A DNA stretch of 64,000 bases from a virus: the IMG/VR virus record IMGVR_UViG_3300028840_001107. One strand, written 5' to 3'. The notes under the pieces were generated by a model. That model was not told the origin of the DNA. It was given only the letters and a program-made list of their open reading frames with translations, and did no database searches. A program made the position numbers and the translations under genes. Of this stretch, positions 9,356-59,259 are shown piece after piece. The stretch's first letter is position 1. Every line of letters begins with the position of its first letter.

Positions 9356-9411
9356 GCCCTAGCCAGTACCGTGAGAGGAGCGGCATTCTCTCGACGGATA
9401 CCGGCTAGGGC
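9356..9411. terminator. Long hairpin at the convergence point of plus and minus transcription (bidirectional terminator candidate)
   Basis: GCCCTAGCC (9356-9364) pairs with GGCTAGGGC (9403-9411), with an inner GAGAG/CTCTC stem. Followed by ATTTTT on the plus strand. Overlaps the stop codon (9405-9407) of the minus-strand glycosyltransferase gene. Confidence 0.6.
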
Positions 9412-44147: not shown

Positions 44148-44531
44148 CTACTTTTCGTAAGTACCCTCTACGCCTCTAGCAACGCGATCACGTGTACGCT
44201 TATGAAGCCACATCATCGCCTCTTGTAACTTAGTTAGAGCCAAAGCGTTTTCCCTACAAGCGTATTCTCCTGATTGAAAACCTTGGAGACGATGCTCTAC
44301 AACTGCGAGTAACGCTTCGTTACTAATACCGTTTACCCCAACCTCTTGAATCGGACCTTTCTGAAATCCAATATTACATATGACCGAACCATTTAGTTCT
44401 TCGTTGAACTCGTCATTCGGACAGTAAATGGTATAAGCATGACAAGCGTTACCTTTCCCAGGCTCATCTAACACTGAAATCTCTAGAGTCTTGTTCAGAC
44501 CATTTACTTTATGACTAGTGATTCTTTCCAC
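44148..44531 (-). CDS. N4 gp49 / Sf6 gp66-like family protein
   Basis: FQKGPIQEVGVNGISNEALLAVVEHRLQGFQSGEYACRENALALTKLQEAMMWLHKRTRDRVARGVEGT matches my recollection of the Phage_gp49_66 family signature. Confidence 0.55.
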   Translation of the reverse strand: MERITSHKVNGLNKTLEISVLDEPGKGNACHAYTIYCPNDEFNEELNGSVICNIGFQKGPIQEVGVNGISNEALLAVVEHRLQGFQSGEYACRENALALTKLQEAMMWLHKRTRDRVARGVEGTYEK

Positions 44532-45219: not shown

Positions 45220-45478
45220 CTCTACCGTTTGTTACGAAGGTAGCTATTTTCGTTTCTACTCTCTTCTCTTGAGTTATACCTGCTCTGGAGAGGTGTTCCC
45301 GATTAGACCAACCCATCCGTATCCTAGCCGTAGCTTCTTCAATATACTGTTCGCTAGGTTGGTAGAAGCCGCACCTAGAACAGGTGTTGGCTCCTTCTCG
45401 CATTAACGCTCCGCAGTAATCGCAGCTGACTTTAGAATCGATCACTGGAGACTCCTTACAAAAGTACCTTGGCGTCAT
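45194..45478 (-). CDS. Zinc-ribbon protein (94 aa)
   Basis: CDYCGALMREGANTCSRCG. ORF track. Confidence 0.5.
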   Translation of the reverse strand: MTPRYFCKESPVIDSKVSCDYCGALMREGANTCSRCGFYQPSEQYIEEATARIRMGWSNREHLSRAGITQEKRVETKIATFVTNGRVDRREYRD

Positions 45479-47597
45479 TGTCGACTGCTTCTAGCATCTC
45501 TACTGTCGTCGGATCTAACTTCCAAACTTTTTTGTTATCCTTCTTCACGCAACGTACCGCTCCTATCTTACGAAGGAACGAGAGTAGACCAGAAACTTTA
45601 GAGCGGTTAAGTCCGGTAAGTACGTGGATCGACTCGTTAGATACGCCGTCGTCGAAAGCGTAAAGATGCTTACATATCTCTAGCGTCGGACCTCTACTCG
45701 TATCGAGAGCTACCCTAGCTACTCGTTCGGTAACTAGCTCGTCGTTAACGTCCCGATTGAGAACTACGGCTAGACACTTAGAGAGTCTAATCAGTTGAGA
45801 GGTGAGGCGGGTAGATACTTCTCTCTCAACGCTTTCGTCCTGCATCTTCGAAGGTCTAGCACGCATAACCGCTACTAACTTAGCTAGCCAATAGATGTAT
45901 TCAGCGAACTCTTCTGTTATATCGCCCATCCCGTTCAACGTTTCTATCGCCGTCTCTTTGAGATGGTTAATATAACCTCCGGTCATCGCCATCGCTTTCG
46001 TTAGCTCCGGTTCTTGTTGGCTTTCGGGTTTACCGTTCGCTTCTACGTTAACTGACTGCCAAGCCTTGATAGCCTTTCTAATTGCTATCTCTCGTTCCAT
46101 ATCTTGGTCGATACGATCCATGATAACGCAGTCAAGAAAGCGTTCTCCTAGTTCGCTGGAGTCGATAGAGCGCAAGGAGTTCGTACCGCAGAGTATCCAA
46201 GTCATTCGGATACCGTTGTAGTCGTTTTGAACGCGGTTACGATAATGAGCCCTACTCGTACCGTCGTAGATGTCTCTAGCCTCTGCTAGGATCTGTCCTA
46301 GGTTAGGAGTTTGAAGAAGCGTGTCGCCGTCTTTCGTTACTAGCGTCTTACCGCGTAACCGATCTATCAACGAGTTATCTTGGCTTCCGTCCCCATAGCC
46401 ACTATGGAACCCGCGTATCGTACTCTTAGGGATAACGTGAGTAAGGTTAGTACTCAACGCTTCGCATAGGGTACTCTTACCGCAGCTAGCAGGACCGATA
46501 ACTTTCAGCCAAAGCTGGTCTCCTTGCATCTTCGTAGAGACTACGCTAGCAAGCATAACCGATAAAGCGTAGTCTAGACCATCGGTCCACTTTAACGCTC
46601 TCTTCCACGACATCGTCAACGCTCTATAGCTTTTACAGTTTAACGGGTTGACGGTCTCTTTGTTAGAAGTCTTATCGTTTGGATCTACCCACTCGTTAGG
46701 TACTGAGCGGATGTCGTCGGAAAGCTCGTTGAACTTATCCAACCTTCTGATAGTCGTCTTCTTCGAAGTTAGGTAGTCTCGAATATCGTAGCCAGAAGAA
46801 AGCTCAGGGTTCCATTGGTTGCCTTTAGCACTCCAATCTAAATACCTAACGTCACTAGCCGTACCGTAGAGAGCGTTGGCTACTTTCTTTATACCAGCTA
46901 ACGCTGCCGGCTCAGGGTTATGCTTTGTTGGGTGGTCGTTATCGAATAACACCCAGACCTCTTTACCCTTGAATAGGCGTAGCCATTCTTCCTTGAATAT
47001 CTTACAACCGGGAGTAGCTACGACCGTATAAGGTACGCTATGAGATCTGAATACCTCATCTAACGCCATAGCGTCCCAAGCTCCCTCAACTAATACTACA
47101 ACTTGGTTAGACTTTCGATAGAGCTTACGACCGAACAGACACGTCCGGAGTCGATGGCTACCGTCGTCGAAAACTAGCGGGCTACTAAAACACTTCGACT
47201 CGTACTTGTAGAGGTTGGCTAAAACGCAACTACCTTGCTTCTTTGAGTAAGTATGTCCCGGAATCAGCCACTTACTACTGATAGCTGACTTAACGACTCC
47301 CCAACGTTTAAGCGTACTAGTCCGTACCAGCCCACGTTCAGTAGCTAGGCGTTTATAATCTGCCGTGGTAGTCGTCTTTAGACTCTCCTTCCATAGACGC
47401 TCAATAAACGTAGCTTGGTTAAACCCGCCGCAACGAAAGCATTGGCCTACACCTTTTTCAACGTTTACGCGAAACTTCTCAGTATCTCCGCACCACGGAC
47501 ACTCTCCACCGCATCTTAGATTCCCTTCTCTATACTCTAGGTTGACTCCGTGAAAATCGTATAGCTTAAGACTATCCGGCAGTTCCTTCTTTCCCAT
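45456..47597 (-). CDS. Bifunctional DNA primase / P-loop helicase
   Basis: Zinc finger CPWCGDTEKFRVNVEKGVGQCFRCG, TOPRIM VVLVEGAWDAMAL and VLFDNDHP, Walker A IGPASCGKSTL. Confidence 0.85.
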   Translation of the reverse strand: MGKKELPDSLKLYDFHGVNLEYREGNLRCGGECPWCGDTEKFRVNVEKGVGQCFRCGGFNQATFIERLWKESLKTTTTADYKRLATERGLVRTSTLKRWGVVKSAISSKWLIPGHTYSKKQGSCVLANLYKYESKCFSSPLVFDDGSHRLRTCLFGRKLYRKSNQVVVLVEGAWDAMALDEVFRSHSVPYTVVATPGCKIFKEEWLRLFKGKEVWVLFDNDHPTKHNPEPAALAGIKKVANALYGTASDVRYLDWSAKGNQWNPELSSGYDIRDYLTSKKTTIRRLDKFNELSDDIRSVPNEWVDPNDKTSNKETVNPLNCKSYRALTMSWKRALKWTDGLDYALSVMLASVVSTKMQGDQLWLKVIGPASCGKSTLCEALSTNLTHVIPKSTIRGFHSGYGDGSQDNSLIDRLRGKTLVTKDGDTLLQTPNLGQILAEARDIYDGTSRAHYRNRVQNDYNGIRMTWILCGTNSLRSIDSSELGERFLDCVIMDRIDQDMEREIAIRKAIKAWQSVNVEANGKPESQQEPELTKAMAMTGGYINHLKETAIETLNGMGDITEEFAEYIYWLAKLVAVMRARPSKMQDESVEREVSTRLTSQLIRLSKCLAVVLNRDVNDELVTERVARVALDTSRGPTLEICKHLYAFDDGVSNESIHVLTGLNRSKVSGLLSFLRKIGAVRCVKKDNKKVWKLDPTTVEMLEAVDNDAKVLL

Positions 47598-48289
47598 CAG
47601 TTAGACCTCTTCAGATTCAGCCGCTCTATTTTACCAGTCGTTACATTTATCTTTGTCTCTACTTCGAACTGACCTTCGCAGTTAGGGCAACCGCCGTTAG
47701 GAGTAAGCCCAAGGTAGACTCGTTTGACTACAGCGTCACTAACCGGCGTACCGCAGGTAGGGCAGTTCTTATTACTACAAAGAATGCGTAGCTCCGTCTC
47801 CATGTCGGTAACGTCATGTACTCGTTCCTCCGATCCGCAGGAAGGACAGCTACAGGCATCCGGAGAAGTAACCTCTAGAGTATCGCTGACCGCTTGTATC
47901 TCTTCCTTACGGTCTCTACGTTCTTCGTCGGCCAGCTCTGAGATAAACTTATCAGGGTAACGCTTCTTGAGCTTGGCGATGTTAGTCGCCATAACGTTTC
48001 CCATGTCTATATCGAGAGCGTTACACATCTGGGCGATATACCAAAGACAGTCGCCAAGTTCTTCGATGAGGTTCAGCCTATCGAAGTCTCTACCGTAGTA
48101 GAGCCAACGCTCTATACAAGCAGCGACTTCTCCGGCATCAGAGGTTAGACCTAACGCCGCGTGGATCATTCGTATCGCCGTTGGACCTTCTTCCCCGATA
48201 CGGTCGTAGGATCTACTTTGATTACACTCTGTACGCTTCGCCAGCTTCTGATATTCGAACGGGTCCATCAGTATTTTCTCACTTCCCAA
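47597..48289 (-). CDS. MazG-like nucleoside triphosphate pyrophosphohydrolase with C-terminal zinc-ribbon region
   Basis: YQKLAKRTE...LGLTSDAGEVA...EELGDCLWYIAQMCNALDIDM...NIAKLKKRYP. C-terminal CSCPSCG...CPTCG...CPNC. Confidence 0.8.
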   Translation of the reverse strand: MGSEKILMDPFEYQKLAKRTECNQSRSYDRIGEEGPTAIRMIHAALGLTSDAGEVAACIERWLYYGRDFDRLNLIEELGDCLWYIAQMCNALDIDMGNVMATNIAKLKKRYPDKFISELADEERRDRKEEIQAVSDTLEVTSPDACSCPSCGSEERVHDVTDMETELRILCSNKNCPTCGTPVSDAVVKRVYLGLTPNGGCPNCEGQFEVETKINVTTGKIERLNLKRSN

Positions 48290-48831
48290 AAGACTGTATT
48301 GAAGTTAGGTAGTGTTCCCCAAGGTTTGGAGTAGGTAGAGAATTCAACGACGTGGTCTAGGTAGCGGTTAAGTAGTTCCCACAACCACCACCAGCTGTTA
48401 TCATCTAGGTTTGCCCTGAGAAGGTTATACGCTCCGTACCAGTTCGCGTGTTTTGTCTCCGTAGCTAACGCCGTACGCATCGGAGCTACAACCGTACTAT
48501 AAGTTAGATCCAAGTAGTCAACACTTCTTCGGACTTCTCCTTGGATCACGGTGAGCTTAGTAGGAGCCATCGCAGAGATATACAGATTAGACTCTCCGAT
48601 TTTCTTCTTCGCTCGATACCAAAGCCTAGGTATATTATACCCCGGTACGTCGTACCACGTCTCTCCTCCGGCTATCCGGTTACGGATATGGTATAGCGTT
48701 CTAGGACTAGGCATAGAACAAGCCCAAGCCTCTATCGTCGGCCAAGTAGGAGAACGGTTACCAAACTCTCCCTTCTCATATCTCCTAACGAAATCCTTTT
48801 TGGTTAGTACCGGTTTATACTTAGTTTCCAT
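48268..48831 (-). CDS. Hypothetical Trp-rich protein (187 aa)
   Basis: ORF track. Overlaps the MazG-like and ThyA-like genes. No family recognised. Confidence 0.55.
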   Translation of the reverse strand: METKYKPVLTKKDFVRRYEKGEFGNRSPTWPTIEAWACSMPSPRTLYHIRNRIAGGETWYDVPGYNIPRLWYRAKKKIGESNLYISAMAPTKLTVIQGEVRRSVDYLDLTYSTVVAPMRTALATETKHANWYGAYNLLRANLDDNSWWWLWELLNRYLDHVVEFSTYSKPWGTLPNFNTVFWEVRKY

Positions 48832-49885
48832 TCTTCTTTCTCCAATTCTCTTCTCGTTTCCTGAGCCAAGCCTTACCGGCTATACTCCACTGTTCGTCCA
48901 AAACTAGATTCACAGCTTCGAAAGCTCTTTGATAGTCCCGTTCCTTATGGTGGCGGAAAGCTAGTACCATCGGAGAGACTACCCTAGCTAAGTAGGGTTC
49001 ATGGAGTAGGGTTTCGTTGCCGTCGATAAAAGCGTTGGCTTCGTCGAAGAATCTATCTGGGTCTTCAACTAAAGGTATCGGACAAGATTTATCCGCAGCG
49101 AAGCGTAGGTCAGAAACCAAAGAACCTACTTTCCACTTCTCTGGAGTCCACGTCTTTTTGTAGACGTGAAGGTTGTTAGTAAATTGGTGGTAGTAACCTA
49201 CCGGCAACTTTATACAGTTAGCTACATACTCCTGTAGGTAGGAGAAGTGTACGACGTTCGCTCCTAGCATACCCCAGACCATATCGTTAGACCGATTAGT
49301 AACGGTCATGTCTAACCTATCGTTCACTACTCGAAAGTAAGCCTGGGTATTACAAGGTACGTCTTTACCGCCGTGAGTAGCCGTCCAAAGGTCGTGTCGT
49401 TTTTCATCCCTATAGATACGTTCTATATCTGAAGCATCCCACATCTGTATAACGCAGCGACGACTCGTTGGATCCTTCTTTAGTTCTTCGATTATGACTT
49501 TCAACTGATCGTATCCGAACTGATGACGCCAACGATAGCCGTACGCTCCGTGAAATGTTTCTCCGTCATCGGAGAACTCTCGCATCCTGGGAAGAAAGTA
49601 AGCCAATGAGTCGACGTCTTGGCGACCAGCTAACATCCAGATGGATTCGAACAGATGGAAGAACGGATTACAGTCTCTACCTTCGTTGAATAAGACTCTT
49701 TGGGTTGGGCTAACGTACGTCACGGTTACGGGGTCACGGTAAGCGTAGACGTCCCCATACCGGCTAGGCGTTGCTACGATTTTGAGGCTAGTCTTCTCCG
49801 GATGGTTGTGGATTCTAATCTGCTCGTTCATGTCGAGAACTAGTCCACGGAAAGCGTGATTGACGTTAGGATAGTACAAGTGCAT
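48821..49885 (-). CDS. Thymidylate synthase-fold enzyme (candidate dUMP hydroxymethylase or divergent ThyA)
   Basis: By-eye alignment to E. coli ThyA. ESIWMLAGRQD matches ELLWFLQGDTN. YGYRWR...DQL...LKKDPTSRRCVIQMWD matches YGKQWR...DQI...LKNDPDSRRIIVSAWN. PCNTQAYFRV matches PCHAFFQFYV (nucleophile Cys kept). TNRSNDMVWGMLGANVVHFSYL matches [20 protein letters not shown] (Asn177 equivalent kept, implying a uracil substrate). Confidence 0.8.
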   Translation of the reverse strand: MHLYYPNVNHAFRGLVLDMNEQIRIHNHPEKTSLKIVATPSRYGDVYAYRDPVTVTYVSPTQRVLFNEGRDCNPFFHLFESIWMLAGRQDVDSLAYFLPRMREFSDDGETFHGAYGYRWRHQFGYDQLKVIIEELKKDPTSRRCVIQMWDASDIERIYRDEKRHDLWTATHGGKDVPCNTQAYFRVVNDRLDMTVTNRSNDMVWGMLGANVVHFSYLQEYVANCIKLPVGYYHQFTNNLHVYKKTWTPEKWKVGSLVSDLRFAADKSCPIPLVEDPDRFFDEANAFIDGNETLLHEPYLARVVSPMVLAFRHHKERDYQRAFEAVNLVLDEQWSIAGKAWLRKREENWRKKNGN

Positions 49886-50438
49886 TGAGTTGCTCCTTTA
49901 CGTAAGGAATCGGGTTTGCCGCTTCGTGAAACATCGCGTTACCTCTACTTGGAAATAGAACGCCCTTACCTCCATGACGTTCGAACTTAAACAAGTTCTC
50001 TTCGCTATCGTCTATGAGGATTCTATCCGCTTGGGCGAAGAGTTCTTTGTACGGAGTGATGAAGAACCTATCGAACTGCGTGCCGAAGTAGTTGCGTATC
50101 CAAATACACTTTCCTAGATGAGCTGAAGGAGATACCGAAGGACTCGACAAGAGAAACCATTCCGACTCCGTTTGGTCGTTAAGTCCTTCAAGAACTGCTA
50201 GTAGTTCTTCGAACCAAGGTAGCGGTTTTATGTCGATCCAAAACCGCGTACCTAAAGCGTTGATAGGCTCCCAAAATTCGTTCGTACTCAAGCCCATCGT
50301 TTTCTCGATACTCCACTGGCCTGGACTCCGCTCTCGTTCGAGTTGATTTCTCGTCCAGCGGTGGATTTCTACGGCGGGTGTAGTAAAATCCGCTAAAACT
50401 TCGTCTATGTCTACGAAAATAATCCTGGAATTTTTCAT
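49866..50438 (-). CDS. HAD-superfamily 5'(3')-deoxyribonucleotidase (NT5C-like)
   Basis: N-terminal IIFVDIDEVLADF (DxDxV motif I, typical NT5C context). 190 aa. Confidence 0.65.
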   Translation of the reverse strand: MKNSRIIFVDIDEVLADFTTPAVEIHRWTRNQLERERSPGQWSIEKTMGLSTNEFWEPINALGTRFWIDIKPLPWFEELLAVLEGLNDQTESEWFLLSSPSVSPSAHLGKCIWIRNYFGTQFDRFFITPYKELFAQADRILIDDSEENLFKFERHGGKGVLFPSRGNAMFHEAANPIPYVKEQLNALVLS

Positions 50439-50536
50439 TTTTCTGGGTCTATCCCTATTTACTTTGGGTGCTCTATCCCGATACTAGTAGGTAGTCGGTT
50501 ACTACTTTTTACTCTTTCCTTTTAAGGAGCGGCAAA

Positions 50537-50941
50537 ATGGCTACGAAGAAAACGACGAAGGCAGTGGCGGCGAAGAAGACGGTTGCGAAGAAAGCTACGG
50601 CGAAGAAAGCTACGGCGAAGAAGACGGTCAAGAAGACGACGACGAAGAAAGCTACCGCTAAGAAAGAGGTCGGAGAGCTTACCGGTACTCAGCTGAGGAT
50701 TCTGGCTTACCTCAAGAAGGTTCGTAAGTCCGTTACCCGCCCGCAGGTCTGCGAAGCTATCGACCTTCGAACGGAAGTTTTCGGTAACCAAACCGGTTAC
50801 GTCAACGACGAAATCAATCAACGAAAGGTTCACGCTCATAACCTCATCAACCGCAAGCTCGTTCGGAAGTCCGAAGCAGAAGTAGACGGCAAAAAAGTCG
50901 TCGTCTATACGATAACTCCCGCAGGAAAGAAGAAAGTCTAA
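50537..50941 (+). CDS. Histone H1-like Lys/Ala/Thr-repeat protein fused to a winged-helix domain
   Basis: MATKKTTKAVAAKKTVAKKATAKKATAKKTVKKTTTKKATAKKE, then LTGTQLRILAYLKKVRKSVTRPQVCEAI... AAGGAG lies 8 nt upstream, and the gene has its own terminator. It is the only plus-strand gene between 9.4 and 64 kb. Confidence 0.7.
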   Translation: MATKKTTKAVAAKKTVAKKATAKKATAKKTVKKTTTKKATAKKEVGELTGTQLRILAYLKKVRKSVTRPQVCEAIDLRTEVFGNQTGYVNDEINQRKVHAHNLINRKLVRKSEAEVDGKKVVVYTITPAGKKKV

Positions 50942-50961
50942 CGGCCACCGCCGTTCGCCTC

Positions 50962-50988
50962 AGCCCGTCCTAATCGACGGGCTTTTTT
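50962..50988 (+). terminator. Rho-independent terminator of the H1-like gene
   Basis: AGCCCGTC/GACGGGCT 8 bp stem (50962-50969 / 50976-50983) followed by TTTTTT. Confidence 0.8.
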
Positions 50989-50992
50989 CGTC

Positions 50993-51967
50993 TCAAGAAT
51001 AACAGTCTATCCCGAGAGGATTAGGTGACTGATACTTTGGGTTCAGCCACTCGTACCGTTCGCTTACGTCATCGAACTCTCCGTCAAGAATCGTCGCTAC
51101 GTTCGCCTCTACCTCCGGACGTTTCGTTTTTGAAATCGACGTAGCTTTCCAACGCTTCTCCATCCAGTGCTCGTAGATTCTATCGAGCTTAGGAAAGTCA
51201 ACGTCAGCGTAGTAAGCGTTGAAGAGTTTCGTTGCCGAGTGTCCTTCTAGTGCGGCTTCAAGATAGTCGCGACACCAGGAGATTGAGTTGTAGAGTTCGG
51301 TCTCGTCAACGACTCCCGGAAAGTGTCGAAACTCAATCGTATCGGTTTGGAGAAGCTGACGAAGGTTAACTGCCGCTCTAGCTTGAGCGTGCCACAAAAC
51401 TTTACCCTCTCTACTTCGCGGCACTTCTGCTTCTAAGAACTCTTGAACCGTCGATGCCGCCAGCTGCTTCTCCACTCGGTTGAGAGGTATCCTAGAAAAG
51501 TGACTCATACGCATCCAGTGGTAACGCTTACGTGCCGCCTTGAGTTCTTCCTTCTCCGGATACTGTTCTCCGGTTGGGTACGGTAGCGGATCAACTAAGT
51601 CAAAGACCTCATAGTTTTCCGACACGTACTTTTGAATCCGCTTAAGTAGCTTAAGATCCTTCGACAGTCCAGGTATCCGGATATGAACTTGCATCCCGGT
51701 ACGATAGTTCACCGTGGCTCTAGGATACCGACGAAGAAACCTAGTCATCAAGTCGACTTGTTCGTCAACCGTATCCGTAGGTGGTGTATTGATTTCTCCT
51801 CCGAATGGATACGAGATGAGTCTAGGATCTGCCGCGATGCCGTTGCTATTACAGATGTTCGGTTCTGGATCGCGTTCGTATCCTTCCCAACCGTTTCTAG
51901 TATCCCAATCGGCATACTCTAGTTCCACGCCGTAGGTCCAATACTTAACGTTAGATTTAGTTTTCAT
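50993..51967 (-). CDS. Glutamine-synthetase-like amidoligase (Amidoligase_2 family)
   Basis: YGVELEY near the N-terminus, FGGEINTPP, then NYRTGMQVHIRIPG. This follows the family pattern fGvEiE ... E.vSP ... cG.HVHv. Confidence 0.6.
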   Translation of the reverse strand: MKTKSNVKYWTYGVELEYADWDTRNGWEGYERDPEPNICNSNGIAADPRLISYPFGGEINTPPTDTVDEQVDLMTRFLRRYPRATVNYRTGMQVHIRIPGLSKDLKLLKRIQKYVSENYEVFDLVDPLPYPTGEQYPEKEELKAARKRYHWMRMSHFSRIPLNRVEKQLAASTVQEFLEAEVPRSREGKVLWHAQARAAVNLRQLLQTDTIEFRHFPGVVDETELYNSISWCRDYLEAALEGHSATKLFNAYYADVDFPKLDRIYEHWMEKRWKATSISKTKRPEVEANVATILDGEFDDVSERYEWLNPKYQSPNPLGIDCYS

Positions 51968-51969
51968 TA

Positions 51970-52761
51970 CTAACTCCTTGCCGGTTTTGCTCTACCTACC
52001 TGCCGCCAGTTGGGCACGTCTACTTCTTCTCTCTTATGCTTAGGACCAACCATAACCTTACGATAGCCGTTGAGTTTTACTGATCCTGCGAAGCGTTCTA
52101 AGATAATCTCTTCATCTATCTTAGCGTCTACTAAACTCCCTTCTCTAGGTCGTACAGGGTTCTGTACCGCTCTAGTCTTATCGAAACCGATATAGTGTAT
52201 CCGCCCTACCGCACCGTCTGCCTCTCGGTGAGCGCAGACTCTATAAACGTCTTCGGTGTAGATGATTCTAGGATCTAAGTAGAACTCTGGAGGGTGAACT
52301 ACCCTAAACATCTGAAGACCCCCGGAGATATGACCGGCCGATCTACCGTAACCGGGTTTCAACCAAGTTCGATTAGATGTAGAATTCGGACCTACTAGCG
52401 TTACGTCGTGCTCCTCCATACACCGTCGTGAAATACTTATAAGCGTATCGACGTCAGTGTAGAAAGGCTTACGCATCGTTATCGTTTTACTATCCAAGTC
52501 ATCATCCATACGGAACGCATAGCGAAACTTACTACGCTTAACGAGACGATAGCAGTGAATTATTTGAGCGGTGAGCCCGCTACGACCTTTCTTCACCTCT
52601 ACGTTTTTGAAATTCTGTTCCTTCACCCAACGTCGATGATCGGCGTAGACTTCTGGATCAGAGATTACCCATACCTTACAGGATGGTCGGTGGTTAACTA
52701 AAGTCTTGATTGGGGCTGGTCGTTTAGCCGGAATAACGACGACTACGTTGCGAAAATACAT
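51970..52761 (-). CDS. GT-A-like glycosyltransferase candidate (TET/JBP-associated glycosyltransferase-like)
   Basis: N-terminal beta-strand VVVVIPAKRP and acidic FRMDDDLD motif ~85 aa later (DxD-like). Weak, pattern-level only. Confidence 0.4.
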   Translation of the reverse strand: MYFRNVVVVIPAKRPAPIKTLVNHRPSCKVWVISDPEVYADHRRWVKEQNFKNVEVKKGRSGLTAQIIHCYRLVKRSKFRYAFRMDDDLDSKTITMRKPFYTDVDTLISISRRCMEEHDVTLVGPNSTSNRTWLKPGYGRSAGHISGGLQMFRVVHPPEFYLDPRIIYTEDVYRVCAHREADGAVGRIHYIGFDKTRAVQNPVRPREGSLVDAKIDEEIILERFAGSVKLNGYRKVMVGPKHKREEVDVPNWRQVGRAKPARS

Positions 52762-53588
52762 TAGCCTATATTCCAGAAAAGTGTTAGGTACTTCTTAAAA
52801 TTGTTATGCTCTCTCATCCACCAACGAAACGCTTTGAGATCGTAGTATGGGTTACAAGGCCATGGGGGACTTGGTCCGGATACCGCTTTGTCTTTGTAAG
52901 CGTAACCTTCGTCGATAATCGTTAGTGGATACTTCGCCGGTAGATTAGTCTTTTGGCGAATGTATCGATCCACTTGGTCGTGGGAACGAGTATAACCTAA
53001 ATGGATTATAAACATCGGAGGTGTTCGACCCAGTTTTAGAAAGCCTTTAATCACTCCGGCAGCTAACGTAGCACTACTAGCTGGAATGATAACCCGACGA
53101 ACTTTGGCTAAGTCTCTAGTCACCTCTTTCGCGGTTTCGATTACCGACTCTTCAAGCTTCAGAGCGTTAGGCATCATGTAGCCACCTTCTCCTTCGCAGA
53201 TCTTTCGAGCTTGGTGAAAGAGAATAGCCGAACGCCCAGCTGGTAAACCCACTAGCTCCGCTCCTAACGCTTTCGCTTGAAGCTGGGGAGGTCTTGGTCC
53301 CGGTTCGTACTTATACTCAGGGTAGAAGTTTATACACCTTCTTCCCAGGATCTTACAGGCACGAGCTACCGCATGACCTGCTTGAGAGTGATACGTATCG
53401 AGAACTCCTACAGGGATGAGAGCATCGAGTTTCTTGACGTGGGCGTAAACTCCTCTGGTTTTCGAGAAGTACGGACCTGGGGGCGTACAACTCTTGTCTT
53501 CGCGTTTTACTAGAAGTTGGTACTTGCTACGATGGTCTTCGACAGGCGTACCGCGTACTAGCATGCCTTGAGCGATAATCTTAGCCAC
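52761..53588 (-). CDS. Fold-type II PLP-dependent enzyme (ACC deaminase / Trp-synthase beta-like)
   Basis: TPVEDHRSKYQLLVKREDKS...FSKTRG (candidate Schiff-base Lys), HSQAGHAVARACKILGRRC, IIPASSATLAAGVIKG. These parallel TP....l.vKReDl...gNK.RK, SNh.ra.A.aa..lGl.c and G.GgT.aG. Confidence 0.65.
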   Translation of the reverse strand: MAKIIAQGMLVRGTPVEDHRSKYQLLVKREDKSCTPPGPYFSKTRGVYAHVKKLDALIPVGVLDTYHSQAGHAVARACKILGRRCINFYPEYKYEPGPRPPQLQAKALGAELVGLPAGRSAILFHQARKICEGEGGYMMPNALKLEESVIETAKEVTRDLAKVRRVIIPASSATLAAGVIKGFLKLGRTPPMFIIHLGYTRSHDQVDRYIRQKTNLPAKYPLTIIDEGYAYKDKAVSGPSPPWPCNPYYDLKAFRWWMREHNNFKKYLTLFWNIG

Positions 53589-54369
53589 TTGGTAATCTCC
53601 TTCGGATAGCTTTGAGGATTCCCACCAGTTTCTTATTAGTAGAGCAAGGGAACTTAAGACAACCGTGGATTAGTTCTCTCGTATCTTTTCCAATCGGGTA
53701 GTGCCCCCCTAGATGAGATTTCCACTTACAGAAAATAGTCTCTGTTTCCTGAACGTTGATAGTACGCTCGTGAATAGGTGGGGCGGTTAGATACCCTAAG
53801 TTTTCAATGAGGTATTCGTGAGCGGAAAGAAGCGAATCGGCGGAGTCGATACCGCACGCTTCACAAGTTACCTCAGCTCCTTGCTTAGACGTCTTAAACA
53901 TCTGTCGCAAGTCTTCGGTACGAAACTCAACCCTACCTACCTCCAATCGATCTAGCATGTCGGGCACTTTCCACTTTATCCATTCTCCGAAGCCGTGTAA
54001 CTCCGTTACCCGTTTCATGATCTTATCGGCCCTAGGTCCGACTTCTAGGAGCCACTCTACTATCTCCGTAGCGTCCGAGAATCGCTGCCTAAGAGACTCT
54101 ACGGAATCTTCGGCTAGTTTACCCCGAAAGTGTCTACGCTCCGTACCGCGTGGGTATAGCGTACCTCCTAGGGCTATTTTCCGTAACTCTCCGAAGAAGT
54201 CTCTGCTCTCAGCTACTCTCGAACATAAACCCGCGTGGTAATAGCACCAGTAGGCTACTAGCCACCGGTCTAATTTACGTTTCGGCATCTTCGCTCGATA
54301 GAGAGCAACGTACAGTGGATCCAAGTCTTCGGTCGTGACTAGGATCTTACCGAACTCTAGCACGTCCAT
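53581..54369 (-). CDS. Second candidate DNA base hypermodification protein (aGPT-pyrophosphorylase clade 2/3-like?)
   Basis: EDLDPLYVALYRA...DRWLVAYWCYYHAGL...PRGTERRHFRG. Recollection-level similarity, plus location inside the cluster. Confidence 0.35.
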   Translation of the reverse strand: MDVLEFGKILVTTEDLDPLYVALYRAKMPKRKLDRWLVAYWCYYHAGLCSRVAESRDFFGELRKIALGGTLYPRGTERRHFRGKLAEDSVESLRQRFSDATEIVEWLLEVGPRADKIMKRVTELHGFGEWIKWKVPDMLDRLEVGRVEFRTEDLRQMFKTSKQGAEVTCEACGIDSADSLLSAHEYLIENLGYLTAPPIHERTINVQETETIFCKWKSHLGGHYPIGKDTRELIHGCLKFPCSTNKKLVGILKAIRRRLPSG

Positions 54370-54370
54370 A

Positions 54371-55750
54371 CTAACCCCCCATCGGAATTTTAAGATGCTT
54401 AGGCTTGATCGCGATAGCCGTGCCGGCTAACTCATCTCCGCACGGCGGTTCACCGTTATCGTCTACGCAATAGAGGCAACCGCTTGGGGGACAAACCGAT
54501 AGAGGTTTGAACTTTTCTTCGGAACTACTCCGCGTATAGACAGGAACGCGATGGCCGTGGCACTGGTCCGAAGTCGTATACTCTCTACCGATACTAACTC
54601 CGGTCTTGTCGACGATTTTACCACTTTCGTTTCGCTCGTAACGATACTCATAGCAAACGGAGTACGTTAACCCGTAGTCAGAAGCCCAACGAATATACTT
54701 ATCGTGAGCCGCCATTCTATACGCTTCGTTTACTGTCCGTTGTCCGCCGATATTCTCCTGGAAGAGAGACTCGAATGCTCCGCCACGCTCTGGGCCGAAG
54801 CGTTTAGTAATACGATCTACCATCGCTGGGGCCCAAGAGTATCCAGCTTCAACGAACTTAACGATGACGTGATCTGCTCCGGCGTTCGCTAACTTGCGAA
54901 ATAGAGACTTAACGTGACCGTGCGTAGTCACTCCCGGTATGATCGGGTTGACTTGTATAGAAACGTAGATGTCGTTTTTCTTTAGCCGTCGTATATCTTT
55001 GAAGTGGTCGGCTAACGGTAGAGCACCTGGAGATAGCTTTCTCCAGTCGGAGCTACTACAAGTGTTAATCGATTTCTGCGCGTAGCTATGCTTATTCTTT
55101 CGAAGAAGACGTATAGCCCAAGAAGGGTAGCGCAGTCGACTCAAGAAGAAGATAGGCAACCCCACTTCTACGCAAGCTTCAGCTGCCTCCTCTGAGTTAT
55201 GGTAGAGTTCTTCTAGTGGAAGAAACGGATCAGTAAAACTACTGAAGTAAACTGCCGCTCCACGACGTACTGGACGCAGCTGCTTCCTAATCTGTTCGCC
55301 GTAGTTATTCGGAACGGTTATAAGGCCGGTACCACGGTATCCGCGAAATCCAGAGTTTACGTAGCAGAACGCGCAGCCTACCGCGCACCAACCGCCGTAG
55401 GGTTCAGTAAGAATAGCCTCAGTAAAACACGGTCTTGGTCTAACACCCTTTGGTTCGTGCTTATTCTTATACCAACCCTGAAGAGGTTTCGCTTTATCAA
55501 TCCTCATATGAGGGTACGGTTCTAAGTAGGCTAAGACGGTTTTGCGATTCTCCTCAGATGCGTTACGCGTCATGCCGATCTTGATCTCTCGTACCTTGAT
55601 CTTTCTTTTCAAGACCTTGTCGTAAACAGTCTTGATCGGACCTAAGTTATCCCTAGGTTCAGGACGCATAAAATATTCGTAGTTGGTGGCGGCAGCGTTG
55701 TCGTCTTCTCCAACCATCTTCGTCGTTATCCAAGATTGTTCCTGATCCAT
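54371..55750 (-). CDS. Radical SAM enzyme (SplB/COG1533-like)
   Basis: EPYGGWCAVGCAFCYVN carries the CX3CX2C motif at Cys122/126/129. Extra C-terminal Cys cluster (CHGH...CPPSGCLYC...PPC). Confidence 0.8.
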   Translation of the reverse strand: MDQEQSWITTKMVGEDDNAAATNYEYFMRPEPRDNLGPIKTVYDKVLKRKIKVREIKIGMTRNASEENRKTVLAYLEPYPHMRIDKAKPLQGWYKNKHEPKGVRPRPCFTEAILTEPYGGWCAVGCAFCYVNSGFRGYRGTGLITVPNNYGEQIRKQLRPVRRGAAVYFSSFTDPFLPLEELYHNSEEAAEACVEVGLPIFFLSRLRYPSWAIRLLRKNKHSYAQKSINTCSSSDWRKLSPGALPLADHFKDIRRLKKNDIYVSIQVNPIIPGVTTHGHVKSLFRKLANAGADHVIVKFVEAGYSWAPAMVDRITKRFGPERGGAFESLFQENIGGQRTVNEAYRMAAHDKYIRWASDYGLTYSVCYEYRYERNESGKIVDKTGVSIGREYTTSDQCHGHRVPVYTRSSSEEKFKPLSVCPPSGCLYCVDDNGEPPCGDELAGTAIAIKPKHLKIPMGG

Positions 55751-55762
55751 TTCTTTCTCCTA

Positions 55763-56314
55763 TCAGCGTGAAGCCTGATCTACCCACTTGAGAACTGTTC
55801 GATGAGCTTGAGTCGATGCTCTACGTACGCATTTTATGTTCGCGGCAGTTAGCTTAACTCTAGCCCGTTCAATAACTCCTACCCGATTGGTCGTATTGGC
55901 TGGGTTTAGTGGTTTAGTATTACCAGCGGCACTTCTCCTTTGTTTTATTCTATCTAAGCACTGGTCGAGTGGGGTTGTTAGGAATACAACCTGTAGAGAC
56001 TCTCCTAAGACATCCCCCATCTGTAACGCCCACTTCGTATCTTCGCTTAGGAGTAATCCTTCAGCGAGAATAACTTCAGCGTCTACCTCTTTCATCACGT
56101 CGAAGACTTGGCGAGCACTACCTATTGTATCGCAACCGCCGCACGCTAGTCCTTCGTAATGACCTAAGACCGCAATCTTTCCTTTCTTCGCTGTGTAAAA
56201 TAGTGGATTCTTTCTACCGTCGATAAAGTGCTTAGCCCACTTGTACTCCTCCATAACTTTACGCATGACGGTAGTCTTACCGCTACCGCTCGTGCCCCTA
56301 ATCTGAATAACCAT
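55763..56314 (-). CDS. P-loop kinase (candidate 5-hydroxymethyl-dU DNA kinase)
   Basis: MVIQIRGTSGSGKTTVMRKV Walker A. 183 aa. Flanked by radical SAM and pyrophosphorylase-like genes. Confidence 0.6.
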   Translation of the reverse strand: MVIQIRGTSGSGKTTVMRKVMEEYKWAKHFIDGRKNPLFYTAKKGKIAVLGHYEGLACGGCDTIGSARQVFDVMKEVDAEVILAEGLLLSEDTKWALQMGDVLGESLQVVFLTTPLDQCLDRIKQRRSAAGNTKPLNPANTTNRVGVIERARVKLTAANIKCVRRASTQAHRTVLKWVDQASR

Positions 56315-57185
56315 TGTATCTCCTCTTCATCTTACCATCGCCTAGCCTAGCTCGTTCGTACTTATCGAACTCGCAGAGGCTATGCTCTATCTCTCGCATC
56401 TCCAGCCTAGGCTTCGTATGAATCTTCTTACGAGCTAACGTGAGAAGTTTCTTCATACGCTTTAGCCAATCCTTAGGCCACGCCGGAGAACTAGAGTTGT
56501 TAGCTTTACCGGTTGGCTCCTCAGCGATACGGTATAGACCGCGTATAGCTCCGGGACCAGGGTTACACCACGTCAGAACGTCCGTAGCGTCTCTTAGTAG
56601 GTTCGTATACCGGAGGTCGCACACGACTTCGTAAGCCATGAATCCGCCTAGCCCGTCGTAAGCGGTTAACGCTTCGTGAGCTTCCTGGAGAGAAGATACC
56701 TCTACAATCTTCGCGGTTAAGTTCTTACGATCTACCCAGACGTTCTGAATACGCTCGCAGATAGCTTCCAGCTTAGGCTTACCCGCTGGAGAGTTTATCA
56801 TAAACGCTCCGGTGAATACTTTCTCTTTACGGTCTCGTATCTTTCCCAAGATACGGAGAGTCTTAGCCTTACTCCACTTTACGAGCAGCCCTTGGTCGAG
56901 CAGTATCTCTCCGGTTGGTATGTAGTTAAACCAACGGAAGATAATCGTAGCCATCACTTGATCGACGTCGGGATGGTAGGCGAACGGTTCACGGATATTC
57001 TCTCTGAACCATACCGTCGTCTTATCGTTTTCGCGGTACGGATTGGTAAAGAAATACTCACGCATAACCGGATCAGTTGTCCAGGGTTTTGGTTCTCCTC
57101 TCTCTTTACGTAGGTGGATCGCGTGGCGTTCCTTTATCCAGTATAGAAAACGTTCGGTTGGGTCTTCAGGGATCATACTACTCAC
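56298..57185 (-). CDS. Candidate alpha-glutamyl/putrescinyl thymine pyrophosphorylase-family (aGPT-Pplase) DNA base hypermodification protein
   Basis: RHAIHLRKERGEPKPWTTDPVMREYFFTNPYRENDKTTVW matches my recollection of the family signature (G.p.PWT.Dpil..yrFcNv.RE.Dr.T.w). Confidence 0.5.
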   Translation of the reverse strand: MSSMIPEDPTERFLYWIKERHAIHLRKERGEPKPWTTDPVMREYFFTNPYRENDKTTVWFRENIREPFAYHPDVDQVMATIIFRWFNYIPTGEILLDQGLLVKWSKAKTLRILGKIRDRKEKVFTGAFMINSPAGKPKLEAICERIQNVWVDRKNLTAKIVEVSSLQEAHEALTAYDGLGGFMAYEVVCDLRYTNLLRDATDVLTWCNPGPGAIRGLYRIAEEPTGKANNSSSPAWPKDWLKRMKKLLTLARKKIHTKPRLEMREIEHSLCEFDKYERARLGDGKMKRRYNGYSD

Positions 57186-59259
57186 TCCAGTTGTTCTTAT
57201 GGTATTCGATACTTACCGGCGTAGGTATGCCGATGTCGTTGCCTCCTTCTTCCATCAGCTTGGCTACCTTCTTGACGATTGATAGGTTGCGTTTATCCGG
57301 TCTATACGGAAAGTCAAATACAATCTCGTCGTGGACTTGCATAATCATTTTATACTCCTTCCGACGTCTACGACTGAGATCAGTAAGGTAGTTATAGCAA
57401 CGTATCATCGCTTTCATCATCCACCACATCGCCGTACCCTGAACGTGGTAGTTAAGAGGTACTGTAGGTTTGACCCTACCGTACTGTCTTTCGCATTCGA
57501 GCGGATACCCTCTAGAAGGATCTACGGTCTTATCGGGTATCGTCTCTACGTAACCATACTTCGTAGCGTGTTCTACCATCCTATCGTTGAGCTTTTTCAT
57601 CTTAGCAAAACGAGCTTGAACTAGCTCTTGCGCTCCGGCTTTATGATAAGCTCTATCCGCCGTACCGCTTTCTGGTACAGCTCCGTATTGTACTGCGAAG
57701 TTTCCATTCTTCGTCCATTGGTAGTTTGTACTTGCGTACTTCTTCTTTGCTTTTAGAAGGTATTCTGGATCGCTTGTATCTAGTTTAAGACGCTTAGTCC
57801 AAAGAATATCGAATACGAGTAGATGATTGCTACCGAAGTATGGAGGCTCATCGGGTTTCTCGAATAGGACTATCATCTCATCTTCTTCTGCTTCGTACGC
57901 TGGTATTCGTAGTTCGATGTTATTAGCGTCGAGAGACCACCACTCTCTACCTTTAGCCGGACCAAAACAGTAGCGTAGGTTGAAACCCTCTTGCTTACTG
58001 ATATTTTGTTCGTTGGGATTACTACTCGACCAACGTAACGTATTTGTACCGGTTGTATTCAACGACGGGTGAAGGACTCTCGCATCTCTCTTTTTAGGGA
58101 GAGAGAATTTGACGTAACTATTCATGTAGGTTATTGCCGTGTCTCGTCTACGCTTCTCTAGTAAGCTCTCCAAGAATCTAGGTATTCGTTGGTCTTCGGA
58201 TAAAACTTTAGCAGCTTCTAGACAAGCTAACAGATCCGCCCTACCCATGCGAAGTTTTCCAGTCGGTGTTCTTATGTTTTTCCTCTTTGCTACGTCTTTA
58301 CCTTTGGCCCCTGAGCCTACAAAACCGGAAGCATCTACTATCCCCATAAAGGGCTCAAGATACTTTTCTCCAAACTCTAATAGAGAGGTATTTGTACCGC
58401 TCTTTGGTAAGGTTACTTCACTGCCGATACTTTTAGATAGACTAACGCAATCGTCATTAAGGGCAGCTGATTGGTTTTGATACTCTCCTAGTAACTCGTT
58501 TAACCTAGACTCTGAATAGGTTACGCCAAAGTCTTCCATGTCGACAACGATAGGAAGGAGCTTAAGGCGTTCTCTATAGATAGCTAGTAGCTTACGTTCC
58601 TTCATCTTACGAAGATGCTTTTTGTAGAGACGAATCGTAGCGGCACTATCCATGTTCGCGTAGTTCTCTAGGACGGTAAACCACTCGTGGTCCGGAGGAT
58701 ACTCTGACGCTTCAGCTATTTGTCTAGGTAACCAGGCATCGTATTTCCAAACGCTGCCCTTAGCACTCGGCATTCCCTTCAGACCTGCCTCAGCGATCTT
58801 CCATTTGGGAAACTCCTTCTTCGCTATCCGCCTAGCCTTTTGACAGGCATCCTTTAGAGCTTCGTTATAGCCGTCTATATCGATACCTAGATAAACTAGC
58901 GACATCGTAGAGAGGTCGTGACGGTTAAGACTCGATAAGAGATGTCCGCTTAGTAGAGTATCCCGTACTTTCGACCAGTCCCAACGAAACTTTACGTGGT
59001 TAGCTTCGAATACGTTTCTCAAAGCGTGGTAGTCAAACTTAGCGTTTTGCAATACGACGATTTTCGCAGCGTCGATAAGTCTTTGAATCTCGATGAGGTC
59101 TTGTCTGGGGACGATAGGTTGACGCGTAGCCGGACAGACTCTCCAGTGCCAGTAGAGTTGGTTATCTTTATCGTCGCAAGTCGTAACGAAGTACGGCATA
59201 GCATCGTGGTAGAGGTCTAAACCAGTCGTCTCAGTATCTAACGCTAGAACCTTAGGCAT
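57178..59259 (-). CDS. Family A DNA polymerase with 3'-5' exonuclease domain
   Basis: Exo I LALDTETTGLD, Exo II LQNAKFDYHAL, Exo III YANMDSAATIRLY. Pol motif A SLDANNIELRIPAY, motif B TKNGNFAVQYGA, motif C IMQVHDEIVFD. Confidence 0.9.
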   Translation of the reverse strand: MPKVLALDTETTGLDLYHDAMPYFVTTCDDKDNQLYWHWRVCPATRQPIVPRQDLIEIQRLIDAAKIVVLQNAKFDYHALRNVFEANHVKFRWDWSKVRDTLLSGHLLSSLNRHDLSTMSLVYLGIDIDGYNEALKDACQKARRIAKKEFPKWKIAEAGLKGMPSAKGSVWKYDAWLPRQIAEASEYPPDHEWFTVLENYANMDSAATIRLYKKHLRKMKERKLLAIYRERLKLLPIVVDMEDFGVTYSESRLNELLGEYQNQSAALNDDCVSLSKSIGSEVTLPKSGTNTSLLEFGEKYLEPFMGIVDASGFVGSGAKGKDVAKRKNIRTPTGKLRMGRADLLACLEAAKVLSEDQRIPRFLESLLEKRRRDTAITYMNSYVKFSLPKKRDARVLHPSLNTTGTNTLRWSSSNPNEQNISKQEGFNLRYCFGPAKGREWWSLDANNIELRIPAYEAEEDEMIVLFEKPDEPPYFGSNHLLVFDILWTKRLKLDTSDPEYLLKAKKKYASTNYQWTKNGNFAVQYGAVPESGTADRAYHKAGAQELVQARFAKMKKLNDRMVEHATKYGYVETIPDKTVDPSRGYPLECERQYGRVKPTVPLNYHVQGTAMWWMMKAMIRCYNYLTDLSRRRRKEYKMIMQVHDEIVFDFPYRPDKRNLSIVKKVAKLMEEGGNDIGIPTPVSIEYHKNNWSE

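Follow-up and report, generated by a model that had tools for sequence, protein, structure and literature searches.

The 64,000-nucleotide (nt) stretch of viral DNA analyzed here (IMG/VR record IMGVR_UViG_3300028840_001107; hereafter the window, to which all coordinates refer) carries, in the minus-strand gene run 48821–57185, a cluster that we consider likely to direct the post-replicative hypermodification of thymidine, by means of an enzyme core like that of Pseudomonas phage M6 together with two tailoring enzymes. That the core represents an M6-type pathway of 5-hydroxymethyldeoxyuridine (5-hmdU) hypermodification we hold with high confidence, and the predicted steps up to 5-(2-aminoethyl)-dU (5-NedU) are well supported by orthology. 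There is a reasonable expectation that the DNA chemistry does not stop at 5-NedU, the most likely predicted products being N-acylated 5-(2-aminoethyl)-dU and/or glycosylated 5-hmdU, and the virion DNA probably holds a thymine derivative, or a mixture of derivatives, unlike any characterized one. By hypermodifying its thymines a phage protects its DNA against restriction enzymes and CRISPR nucleases, and pathways of this kind are also a source of enzymes for site-selective DNA functionalization.

An initial annotation of this DNA had named six proteins in the run: a ThyA-fold enzyme, a P-loop kinase, a radical S-adenosylmethionine (SAM) enzyme, a fold-type II pyridoxal phosphate (PLP) enzyme and two proteins resembling aGPT-pyrophosphorylases (aGPT-Pplases). 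All six are co-oriented on the minus strand and each belongs to its expected profile family; in particular, profile searches placed neither the two Pplase-like proteins nor the kinase in unrelated families. The proposal that the kinase, radical SAM, Pplase and PLP core is M6-like also held, as the enzymes of M6 and PaMx11 are the nearest ones from cultured phages, and the suggestion of a larger, differently composed gene set with a possible new base is borne out by an amidoligase and a TAGT-like glycosyltransferase (GT). These two, an NT5C-type nucleotidase and an antisense H1-like open reading frame (ORF) are the genes in the span that the annotation had left unnamed. New here are the sorting of amidoligase clusters into three types, the identification of the embedded GT-A enzyme together with its subfamily, and a combination of genes that only this phage has among the loci compared.

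The M6-type core

The window belongs to a tailed-phage genome (terminase, portal, Mu-F-like, tape-measure, and tail-terminator genes) and matches both ends of a 20.8-kb stretch fetched from the 66.9-kb ENA metagenome contig ERZ27256783 k141_1493281. JGI samples 3300017991 and 3300018080 contain pieces of this locus, each with an identical copy of the 263-residue GT protein described below; the phage is uncultured and known from metagenome contigs only. A megablast search of the 8.4-kb region against 50,697 deposited phage records returned zero nucleotide matches, which indicates a phage without a close sequenced relative among them. From 45.4 to 59.3 kb the real genes are densely packed and, with a single exception, share the minus strand, in the transcription order PolA, HMUDK_hel, kinase, radical SAM enzyme, amino-acid:DNA transferase (ADDT), PLP enzyme, 263-residue GT, Amidoligase_2, a gap, NT5C, ThyA-like, unk187, MazG, and primase-helicase. 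The junctions from the polymerase to the amidoligase gene are −8, −17, +12, +1, −8, −1, and +2 nt, and those from NT5C to the primase gene −20, −11, −22, and −1 nt; such overlaps and spacings of at most 12 nt argue for one operon-like array and against a chance grouping. The cluster had been described as lying next to a DNA polymerase gene, and this is so: the gene for a family-A DNA polymerase (PolA, 57178–59259, minus strand; PF00476, E 1.6e-31, plus a 3′-5′ exonuclease domain) is the first of the array, lies directly upstream of the HMUDK_hel gene and overlaps it by 8 nt. We regard PolA as context and not as a modification enzyme.

The window encodes full-length homologs of all five M6 core proteins, four of the five being biochemically characterized, and Pfam, PHROG, and BLAST searches place the core enzymes with their M6 or PaMx11 counterparts. 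The P-loop 5-hmdU DNA kinase (55763–56314, minus strand), recognized by its Walker A motif GTSGSGKTT, is by BLASTP 42% identical to PaMx11 gp49 (E 1e-34) and 27% identical to M6 gp54 (E 3e-9), although its score against Pfam HMUDK_HMUD1, 18.9 bits, is under the 27-bit cut-off and counts against the assignment. The initial annotation had the kinase pyrophosphorylate 5-hmdU, which must be corrected, as M6 gp54 puts one phosphate, not pyrophosphate, on 5-hmdU in DNA to give its phosphate ester, 5-phosphomethyl-dU (5-PmdU) (PMC8989533). The kinase gene is overlapped by 17 nt by that of HMUDK_hel, the 5-hmdU DNA kinase helical-domain partner formerly called aGPT-Pplase1 (56298–57185, minus strand; PF18723, E 9.1e-55, 186 bits against a cut-off of 25), which is 43% identical to PaMx11 gp50 and 35% to M6 gp55.

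The second Pplase-like protein is the ADDT, formerly aGPT-Pplase2 (53581–54369, minus strand; PF18724, E 1.1e-14, 55 bits against a cut-off of 26), which is a clade-2 protein and groups with the glycine-transferring ADDTs. Its nearest relatives in cultured phages are the glycine transferases M6 gp51 (about 39% identity) and PaMx11 gp46 (37%), and it is predicted from these to be of the glycine type; M6 gp51 swaps the phosphate for glycine (PMC8989533). It shares only 26% identity with PhiW-14 gp109, which uses putrescine, and gave no match to the ViI-type serine transferases. The ViI-, PhiW-14-, and SP10-type pathways were ruled out on these grounds. Both Pplase-like proteins had been taken for enzymes that substitute the activated base, and this stands for the clade-2 ADDT only: clade-1 proteins such as HMUDK_hel are now classed as kinase helical partners, and M6 gp55 is dispensable in vitro (PMC8989533).

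The radical SAM enzyme (54371–55750, minus strand) is an ortholog of the M6 gp53 isomerase, with 57% identity over 96% of its length and a match to phrog_9252 (E 5e-186). The cluster cysteines C122-x3-C126-x2-C129 lie in the sequence CAVGCAFC (residues 122–129), and seven further cysteines are conserved (108, 366, 397, 420, 425, 428, and 437). M6 gp53, itself a radical SAM protein with the sequence CTVGCAFC and ~9 Fe, isomerizes Nα-glycinyl-T to Cα-glycinyl-T (PMC8989533), and the presence of this isomerase points to the M6 route. The fold-type II PLP enzyme (52761–53588, minus strand; PALP, E 9e-12) is 45% identical to the M6 gp52 decarboxylase, and its Lys43 (in FSKTRG) aligns with the Schiff-base lysine K36 of gp52; a sequence search against the PDB gave nothing significant. 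In M6, decarboxylation by this PLP enzyme yields 5-NedU (PMC8989533). The characteristic enzymes of the PaMx11 type, leading to N-acetylated 5-aminomethyl-dU (5-AcNmdU), are a flavin adenine dinucleotide (FAD)-dependent lyase and a GNAT acetyltransferase, and tblastn with PaMx11 gp47 and gp48 and the phage Simon FAD enzyme found no match to them in the window. A search of the window for the wider set of partners found in such clusters (LMWPc, glutamine amidotransferase [GATase], Tet/JBP, FAD lyase, acetyltransferase, HAD, and HD proteins) likewise found none.

Precursor supply is represented by a predicted ThyA-fold dUMP hydroxymethylase (48821–49885, minus strand; PF00303, E 3.6e-21), 44% identical to PaMx11 gp51 and 41% to M6 gp58. 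The nucleophile Cys and the Asn that had been reported as retained are Cys178 and Asn210, which align with C146 and N177 of the E. coli enzyme. Among proteins of solved structure the best match to this enzyme is the CMP hydroxymethylase MilA (E 1e-18), in which Asp stands at the Asn210 position, and a hydroxymethylase as nearest structure, with Asp there and Asn here, fits a uracil-specific hydroxymethylase. The enzyme is predicted to make 5-hmdUMP for replication, with the proviso that hydroxymethylase and methylase cannot be told apart from sequence. The adjoining gene encodes an NT5C-type 5′(3′)-deoxyribonucleotidase (49866–50438, minus strand; PF06941, E 3e-9), and the same NT5C and ThyA-like gene pair is present in three related loci (L010, L013, and L027). 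By analogy with classical hydroxymethyluracil (hmU)-phage biology, NT5C likely acts on the nucleotide pool and depletes dTMP, and a MazG-type nucleoside-triphosphate pyrophosphohydrolase with a zinc-ribbon tail (47597–48289, minus strand; PF03819, E 9e-11) likely serves pool sanitation, keeping out dTTP or dUTP.

Orthology of the complete enzyme set is what supports the pathway up to 5-NedU for this phage. First, the ThyA-fold enzyme would make 5-hmdUMP, with NT5C and MazG tilting the pool against dTTP, and the polymerase would incorporate 5-hmdU. The P-loop kinase and its helical partner would then phosphorylate 5-hmdU in DNA to 5-PmdU, the ADDT would displace the phosphate with glycine to give Nα-glycinyl-T, the radical SAM enzyme would isomerize this to Cα-glycinyl-T, and the PLP enzyme would decarboxylate the latter to 5-NedU. 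These five steps rest on homology to characterized enzymes; the sixth and seventh, those of the amidoligase and the GT, we infer.

If the database names were literal, the same genes would encode a thymidylate synthase, a DNA-repair photolyase (spore photoproduct lyase-like), a threonine dehydratase, and a small terminase, and PHROG and GenBank do carry these labels. We give this reading almost no credence: the M6 and PaMx11 proteins under the same labels are biochemically a 5-hmdU kinase, an isomerase, and a decarboxylase (PMC8989533), the window has a separate Terminase_2 gene at 42807–43424, and the solved structure nearest to the ThyA-like protein is that of a hydroxymethylase.

The public labels of these enzymes are misleading more widely. 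In M6 (L003), PaMx11 (L105), and the PHROGs, the 5-hmdU DNA kinase appears as "terminase small subunit" (phrog_800), the radical SAM isomerase as "DNA repair photolyase," and the PLP decarboxylase as "threonine dehydratase."

The amidoligase as a candidate amine-acylating enzyme

The first of the two additional enzymes is an Amidoligase_2 protein, an ATP-dependent carboxylate-amine ligase (50993–51967, minus strand; PF12224, 30.1 bits against a cut-off of 22), whose gene is the last of the first transcription unit. Residues E15, E17, E58, H95, R197, E212, and R214 are invariant across 38 homologs. There are 539 metagenomic homologs, some of them fused to the 5-hmdU kinase (P0073 and P0100) or to a low-molecular-weight (LMW) phosphatase; among deposited phage records phage Simon alone gives a near-full-length match (42% identity), a weaker one coming from a Vibrio jumbo phage (30%). 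Searches of the PDB with the single sequence and with a profile returned no significant solved relative by sequence, and the literature searched held no characterized Amidoligase_2 member from a hypermodification cluster. Clusters combining kinase, Pplase2, radical SAM, and PLP genes with an amidoligase had already been noted, uncharacterized (PMC8989533), so the novelty of the locus is narrower than the initial annotation implied. A 2026 PNAS paper still treats the products of GATase/kinase/AADT clusters as unknown.

To place the enzyme we typed the neighbors of amidoligase genes in 80 IMG/VR loci (L025–L104), in nearly all of which the homolog lies within a hypermodification cluster. Three types emerged. 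Type I (~41 of the 80 loci) combines Tet/JBP, ADDT, a class-II GATase and LMWPc (a protein of the LMW phosphotyrosine-phosphatase fold), with or without a GT-B gene; type II (~20) combines ThyA, kinase, hel (HMUDK_hel), ADDT, and FAD genes, with or without LMWPc; and type III (~9), to which the window belongs, combines ThyA, kinase, hel, ADDT, radical SAM, and PLP genes. GATase never accompanies FAD (0 of 20 loci) or PLP (0 of 8), and this pattern of exclusion fits three alternative routes to a DNA-borne amine. In type II the gene order is ADDT-FAD-amidoligase-(LMWPc)-kinase-hel-ThyA, the amidoligase occupying the slot of the PaMx11 acetyltransferase gp48, which acetylates 5-aminomethyl-dU (PMC8989533), and in type III the amidoligase gene directly follows the PLP gene in seven of eight loci.

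On balance we lean toward a scheme in which each cluster type would make a DNA-borne primary amine in its own way and the amidoligase would then N-acylate that amine with ATP. In the window, the sixth step would consist of the amidoligase using ATP to attach a free carboxylic acid, perhaps that of an amino acid, to the amine just formed, giving N-acyl-5-NedU in a reaction analogous to the acetylation carried out by PaMx11 gp48. Two observations speak against this scheme. LMWPc, sometimes fused, is the commonest partner of the amidoligase (65 of the 80 loci) and is absent from the window, and in one locus (L095), as in those with ADDT and LMWPc only, the amidoligase occurs without an amine-generating enzyme. 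The latter loci fit poorly, so that a single amine-acylating role is favored, not settled.

Alternatively, the substrate could be the DNA-borne carboxylate of Nα- or Cα-glycinyl-T, which the amidoligase would activate and couple to ammonia, an amine, or an amino acid; the outcome would be a glycinamide- or peptide-type side chain, with the reaction competing with or replacing decarboxylation. Glutamine synthetase-like amidoligases activate carboxylates as acyl phosphates, and class-II GATases are the classic ammonia donors. A class-II GATase is paired with the amidoligase in the ~41 type I loci, and L095 together with ~17 further loci has ADDT and amidoligase genes and no amine-generating enzyme, all of which would suit this second chemistry. 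In the FAD-type loci, however, the carboxylate is lost as glyoxylate too early for amide formation, and these loci nonetheless keep the amidoligase in the acetyltransferase slot; furthermore, the window has no GATase, and the same operon encodes the M6 decarboxylase ortholog with its catalytic Lys. We therefore regard carboxylate amidation as rather unlikely, and acylation of the amine as the preferred reading.

The predicted 263-residue glycosyltransferase and its subfamily

The second additional enzyme, a 263-residue protein (51970–52761, minus strand), is encoded by a gene inserted between those of the PLP enzyme and the amidoligase. As judged by hhalign, an AlphaFold model, Foldseek, and a sequence motif, it is best described as a predicted divergent TAGT-like GT-A glycosyltransferase of a sister subfamily to TAGT. 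A word-indexed search found one non-identical homolog of the protein, and an exhaustive profile search 46 representatives. Twelve of 36 aligned sequences (family members and two bridging relatives) match PF20691 (TAGT), the best at E 1.7e-10, and hhalign aligned the subfamily with bona fide TAGT proteins at 99.2% probability (E 1.7e-19) over 240 columns with ~17% identity. The AlphaFold (AF2) model built from the 36-sequence alignment, which is the one used here, has a pLDDT of 94 and a pTM of 0.91 (a model from a 2-sequence alignment, with a pLDDT of 39, was unusable). Its top Foldseek matches in the PDB are the GT-A glycosyltransferases RmlT, TarS, TarP, and SpsA, and those in BFVD are phage TAGT proteins, including a β-glucosyl-hydroxymethylcytosine (HMC)-α-glucosyltransferase. 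Within the subfamily D86 and D87 are invariant, R14, D88, and D171 are nearly so, and E170 precedes D171 in the sequence EDVY; R14, D86-D87-D88, and E170-D171 thereby match the R…DDD…EDY/F motif common to phage DNA GT-A enzymes and the trypanosome glucosyltransferase JGT (Pyle et al.).

Weighing against this identification are the lack of any direct match of the 263-residue protein in Pfam (TAGT included, at E<0.1), the PHROGs, and NCBIfam, and the fact that GT-A folds also include nucleotidyltransferases. A search of PDB sequences with the GT profile gave nothing significant. The window has no Tet/JBP dioxygenase, the usual associate of TAGT; the neighbors of the subfamily are ThyA-like, kinase, hel, and ADDT genes.

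One of the relatives bridging the subfamily and TAGT, P0163 (468 residues), has a C-terminal fusion to a Tet_JBP-like 2-oxoglutarate-Fe(II) dioxygenase. It is a single-polypeptide hydroxylase-glycosyltransferase and the only member with a Tet_JBP-like fusion.

GT-subfamily loci were gathered from three sets, namely L004 and L014, eight IMG/VR loci, and eighteen JGI metagenome loci, some of the contigs being duplicates. In every locus long enough to show neighbors (~25 after removal of duplicates), the GT gene is adjoined by 5-hmdU cluster genes. The usual order is HAD-ADDT′-GT-HD(YfbR-like)-kinase-hel-ThyA-unk187, and radical SAM or PLP genes occur in none; an amidoligase was found among the other GT loci only in L095, which has two TAGT-like genes. 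The subfamily had no tblastn match in the 50,697 deposited phage genomes.

These ~25 loci (L004, L014, L017–L024, and L106–L123) make up a second cluster type in their own right, HAD-ADDT′-TAGT-like GT-HD(YfbR-like)-kinase-HMUDK_hel-ThyA-like-unk187, in which the ADDT′ belongs to a divergent clade. The HAD-ADDT′-GT arrangement is apparently an undescribed type of thymidine hypermodification.

L027, L010, and L013 are closely related to the window and syntenic with it, with identities of 44–54% for PolA, 59–66% for the radical SAM enzyme, and 48–61% for the amidoligase. L027 and L010 share the order PolA-hel-kinase-rSAM-ADDT-PLP-amidoligase-NT5C-ThyA-unk187, which is that of the window without the GT gene. 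In all three loci the PLP and amidoligase genes are neighbors with no GT between them; they adjoin directly in L010, and in L027 their aligned segments are ~86 nt apart. Among the compared loci only this phage combines the M6 core, the amidoligase, and the GT. The window thus appears to be a hybrid, an M6-plus-amidoligase cluster into which a single GT gene has been inserted from another cluster type; the GT stands here without its usual ADDT′ partner.

In the seventh step the TAGT-like GT-A would transfer a sugar to DNA, the acceptor being either 5-hmdU or a hydroxyl of the acyl chain. The DNA-borne groups common to both cluster types are 5-hmdU, which offers a hydroxyl, and its ester 5-PmdU, which gives a slight preference to 5-hmdU. 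The likelier acceptor would be 5-hmdU that escaped the kinase, with a base-J-like branch product, and the alternative one the hydroxyl of the acyl side chain; a parallel glycosyl-hmdU branch is accordingly slightly favored over glycosylation of the acyl side chain. Were the GT to act in series, on a hydroxyl or amine of the completed side chain, one base would carry both an amino acid and a sugar. Several observations are compatible with this: the GT gene lies between the PLP and amidoligase genes, a TAGT member, the T2/T6 β-glucosyl-HMC-α-glucosyltransferase, takes a base that has already been modified as its substrate, ~20 Tet/JBP-type loci have GT-B genes along with the amidoligase, and L095 pairs an amidoligase with two TAGT-like genes. 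Against it, a hydroxyl group is missing from 5-NedU, and the ~25 GT loci lack radical SAM, PLP, and amidoligase genes, from which it follows that the acceptor of the GT cannot depend on those enzymes. We consider action in series doubtful, and keep the parallel branch as the working reading. A combined outcome, either N-acylated 5-NedU that is also glycosylated or a genome with acyl-NedU alongside a bacterial-virus analog of base J, is a tentative possibility.

It is also conceivable, though improbable, that the pathway is simply that of M6, with 5-NedU as the final base and the amidoligase and GT-A acting on a protein, a metabolite, or the cell envelope. All enzymes for 5-NedU are here and are nearest to those of M6, M6 needs neither extra enzyme (PMC8989533), and the other sugar genes of the phage may have non-DNA roles. 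However, the operon includes both extra genes, whose junctions measure −1 and +2 nt; homologs of the amidoligase are fused to the 5-hmdU kinase and are found in hypermodification clusters throughout nearly the whole survey; and the GT subfamily stands beside kinase, hel, ThyA-like, or ADDT genes wherever its neighbors can be seen. An extension of the chemistry beyond 5-NedU, by one or both tailoring enzymes, hence remains the reading we prefer.

The M6, ViI, and PaMx11 pathways have been solved, and the amidoligase clusters flagged by the same authors are still uncharacterized. The present locus is a compact, syntenic test case for them, with a characterized M6-type core and exactly two extra enzymes, and comparison of the GT-less relatives (L027 and L010) with the ~25 GT loci of the other type should assign the contribution of each. 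The GT subfamily is tied to the 5-hmdU kinase pathway and is absent from the deposited phage genomes searched; if it glycosylates 5-hmU, it would be the phage counterpart of the trypanosome base-J glucosyltransferase. If the combined outcome were true in either form, the 263-residue protein would found a subfamily of DNA glycosyltransferases of the 5-hmU pathway, and the amidoligase would be the first DNA-base amide ligase.

Neighboring genes and comparison with named systems

A conserved 187-residue protein, unk187 (48268–48831, minus strand), has no match in Pfam, the PHROGs, NCBIfam, or the PDB. Homologs hold the same position in L004, L013, L014, L017, L020–23, L027, and L115–117, and in a dozen or more independent 5-hmdU clusters, M6-like and GT-type alike, unk187 is the gene that comes immediately after the ThyA-like one. 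It is an unrecognized conserved component of 5-hmdU pathways. The last gene in the transcription order given above encodes the primase-helicase (45456–47597, minus strand).

The gap of 554 nt after the amidoligase gene holds an antisense ORF and a strong hairpin terminator. The hairpin (50962–50983, plus strand; an 8-bp stem with six G-C pairs, then TTTTTT) resembles an intrinsic terminator and is placed between the converging amidoligase gene and the ORF. The latter (50537–50941, plus strand) encodes a 134-residue, Lys/Ala/Thr-rich, H1-like protein with a weak match to PF07382 (HC2); it is called as a gene in the ENA contig, and L010 has a 44%-identical homolog in the same antisense position. 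The protein is probably DNA-binding and may serve the module in that capacity or as a regulator.

Two further sugar genes lie outside the cluster. An SDR-family (short-chain dehydrogenase/reductase) nucleotide-sugar epimerase/dehydratase of the GalE/RmlB-like kind (61717–62760, minus strand; PF01370, E 2e-27; PF16363, E 3e-22), with NCBIfam matches to dTDP-glucose 4,6-dehydratase and GalE-like families that are all below cut-off, has its gene 2.5 kb upstream of that for PolA and ~4.5 kb from the first modification gene. A sugar donor for the GT could come from this enzyme. The other fetched loci contain no homolog of it, and because it does not co-occur with the GT subfamily the link stays speculative. 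A second GT-like gene, of GT-B type (9405–10301, minus strand; Glyco_trans_1_2, E 8e-17), is at the end of the tail-gene block. Either gene could be related to the cluster; nothing ties either to it.

Two other minus-strand genes of the window deserve mention. A 127-residue protein (44148–44531) has an Acb2/Tad1 hairpin domain (E 6e-7), which suggests a cyclic-nucleotide sponge against CBASS or Thoeris defense, and a 250-residue ORF (63198–63950) with very long Asp/Glu runs (DEEDEEDEEDEEDEDEDEDEDEE…) may encode a DNA mimic or another highly acidic early protein.

Among named systems the window is closest to the 5-NedU pathway of Pseudomonas phage M6/YuA (Lee et al. 2018, 2021), of which gp51, gp52, gp53, gp54, gp55, and gp58 have full-length homologs here (39, 45, 57, 27, 35, and 41% identity), with the catalytic Lys and the Fe-S cysteines kept and with the cluster likewise in the replication module near PolA. 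The gene order differs, being ADDT-PLP-rSAM-kinase-hel in M6 and hel-kinase-rSAM-ADDT-PLP in the window; the M6 HD hydrolase is replaced by NT5C and MazG, and the window adds the amidoligase and the GT-A, both lacking in M6. The 5-AcNmdU system of Pseudomonas phage PaMx11 contributes the closest kinase, hel, and ThyA-like proteins of any cultured phage (42–44%), and shares with the scheme proposed for the window the logic of a primary amine first and N-acylation afterwards. PaMx11 achieves this with the FAD lyase gp47 and the acetyltransferase gp48, whereas in the window the amine would come from the radical SAM and PLP enzymes and the acylation from an ATP-dependent amidoligase. In phage Simon (PQ683277), the order is ADDT-FAD-amidoligase-LMWPc-kinase-hel-Nmad5-ThyA, and ~20 IMG/VR loci are grouped with it under the order ADDT-FAD-amidoligase-LMWPc-kinase-hel-ThyA. 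The Simon amidoligase belongs to the same family as that of the window and is also inside a 5-hmdU kinase cluster, but this type uses the PaMx11-like FAD route with an LMW phosphatase and has no radical SAM, PLP, or GT gene.

The uncultured M6-like clusters with an amidoligase (L027, L010, L013, L026, L028, L030, and L089) have the same gene set as the window at 48–66% identity, and a TAGT-like gene is present in none of them. For the GT itself the comparison is with TAGT (PF20691), which includes the T2/T6 enzyme and the phage GT-As of Pyle et al., and with the trypanosome JGT. The window protein shares with these the predicted GT-A fold, the R…DDD…ED motif, a length of ~250–270 residues, and a phage DNA-modification context; it differs in its ~17% profile-level identity and in its association with ThyA-like and 5-hmdU kinase genes in place of Tet/JBP and methyltransferase genes.

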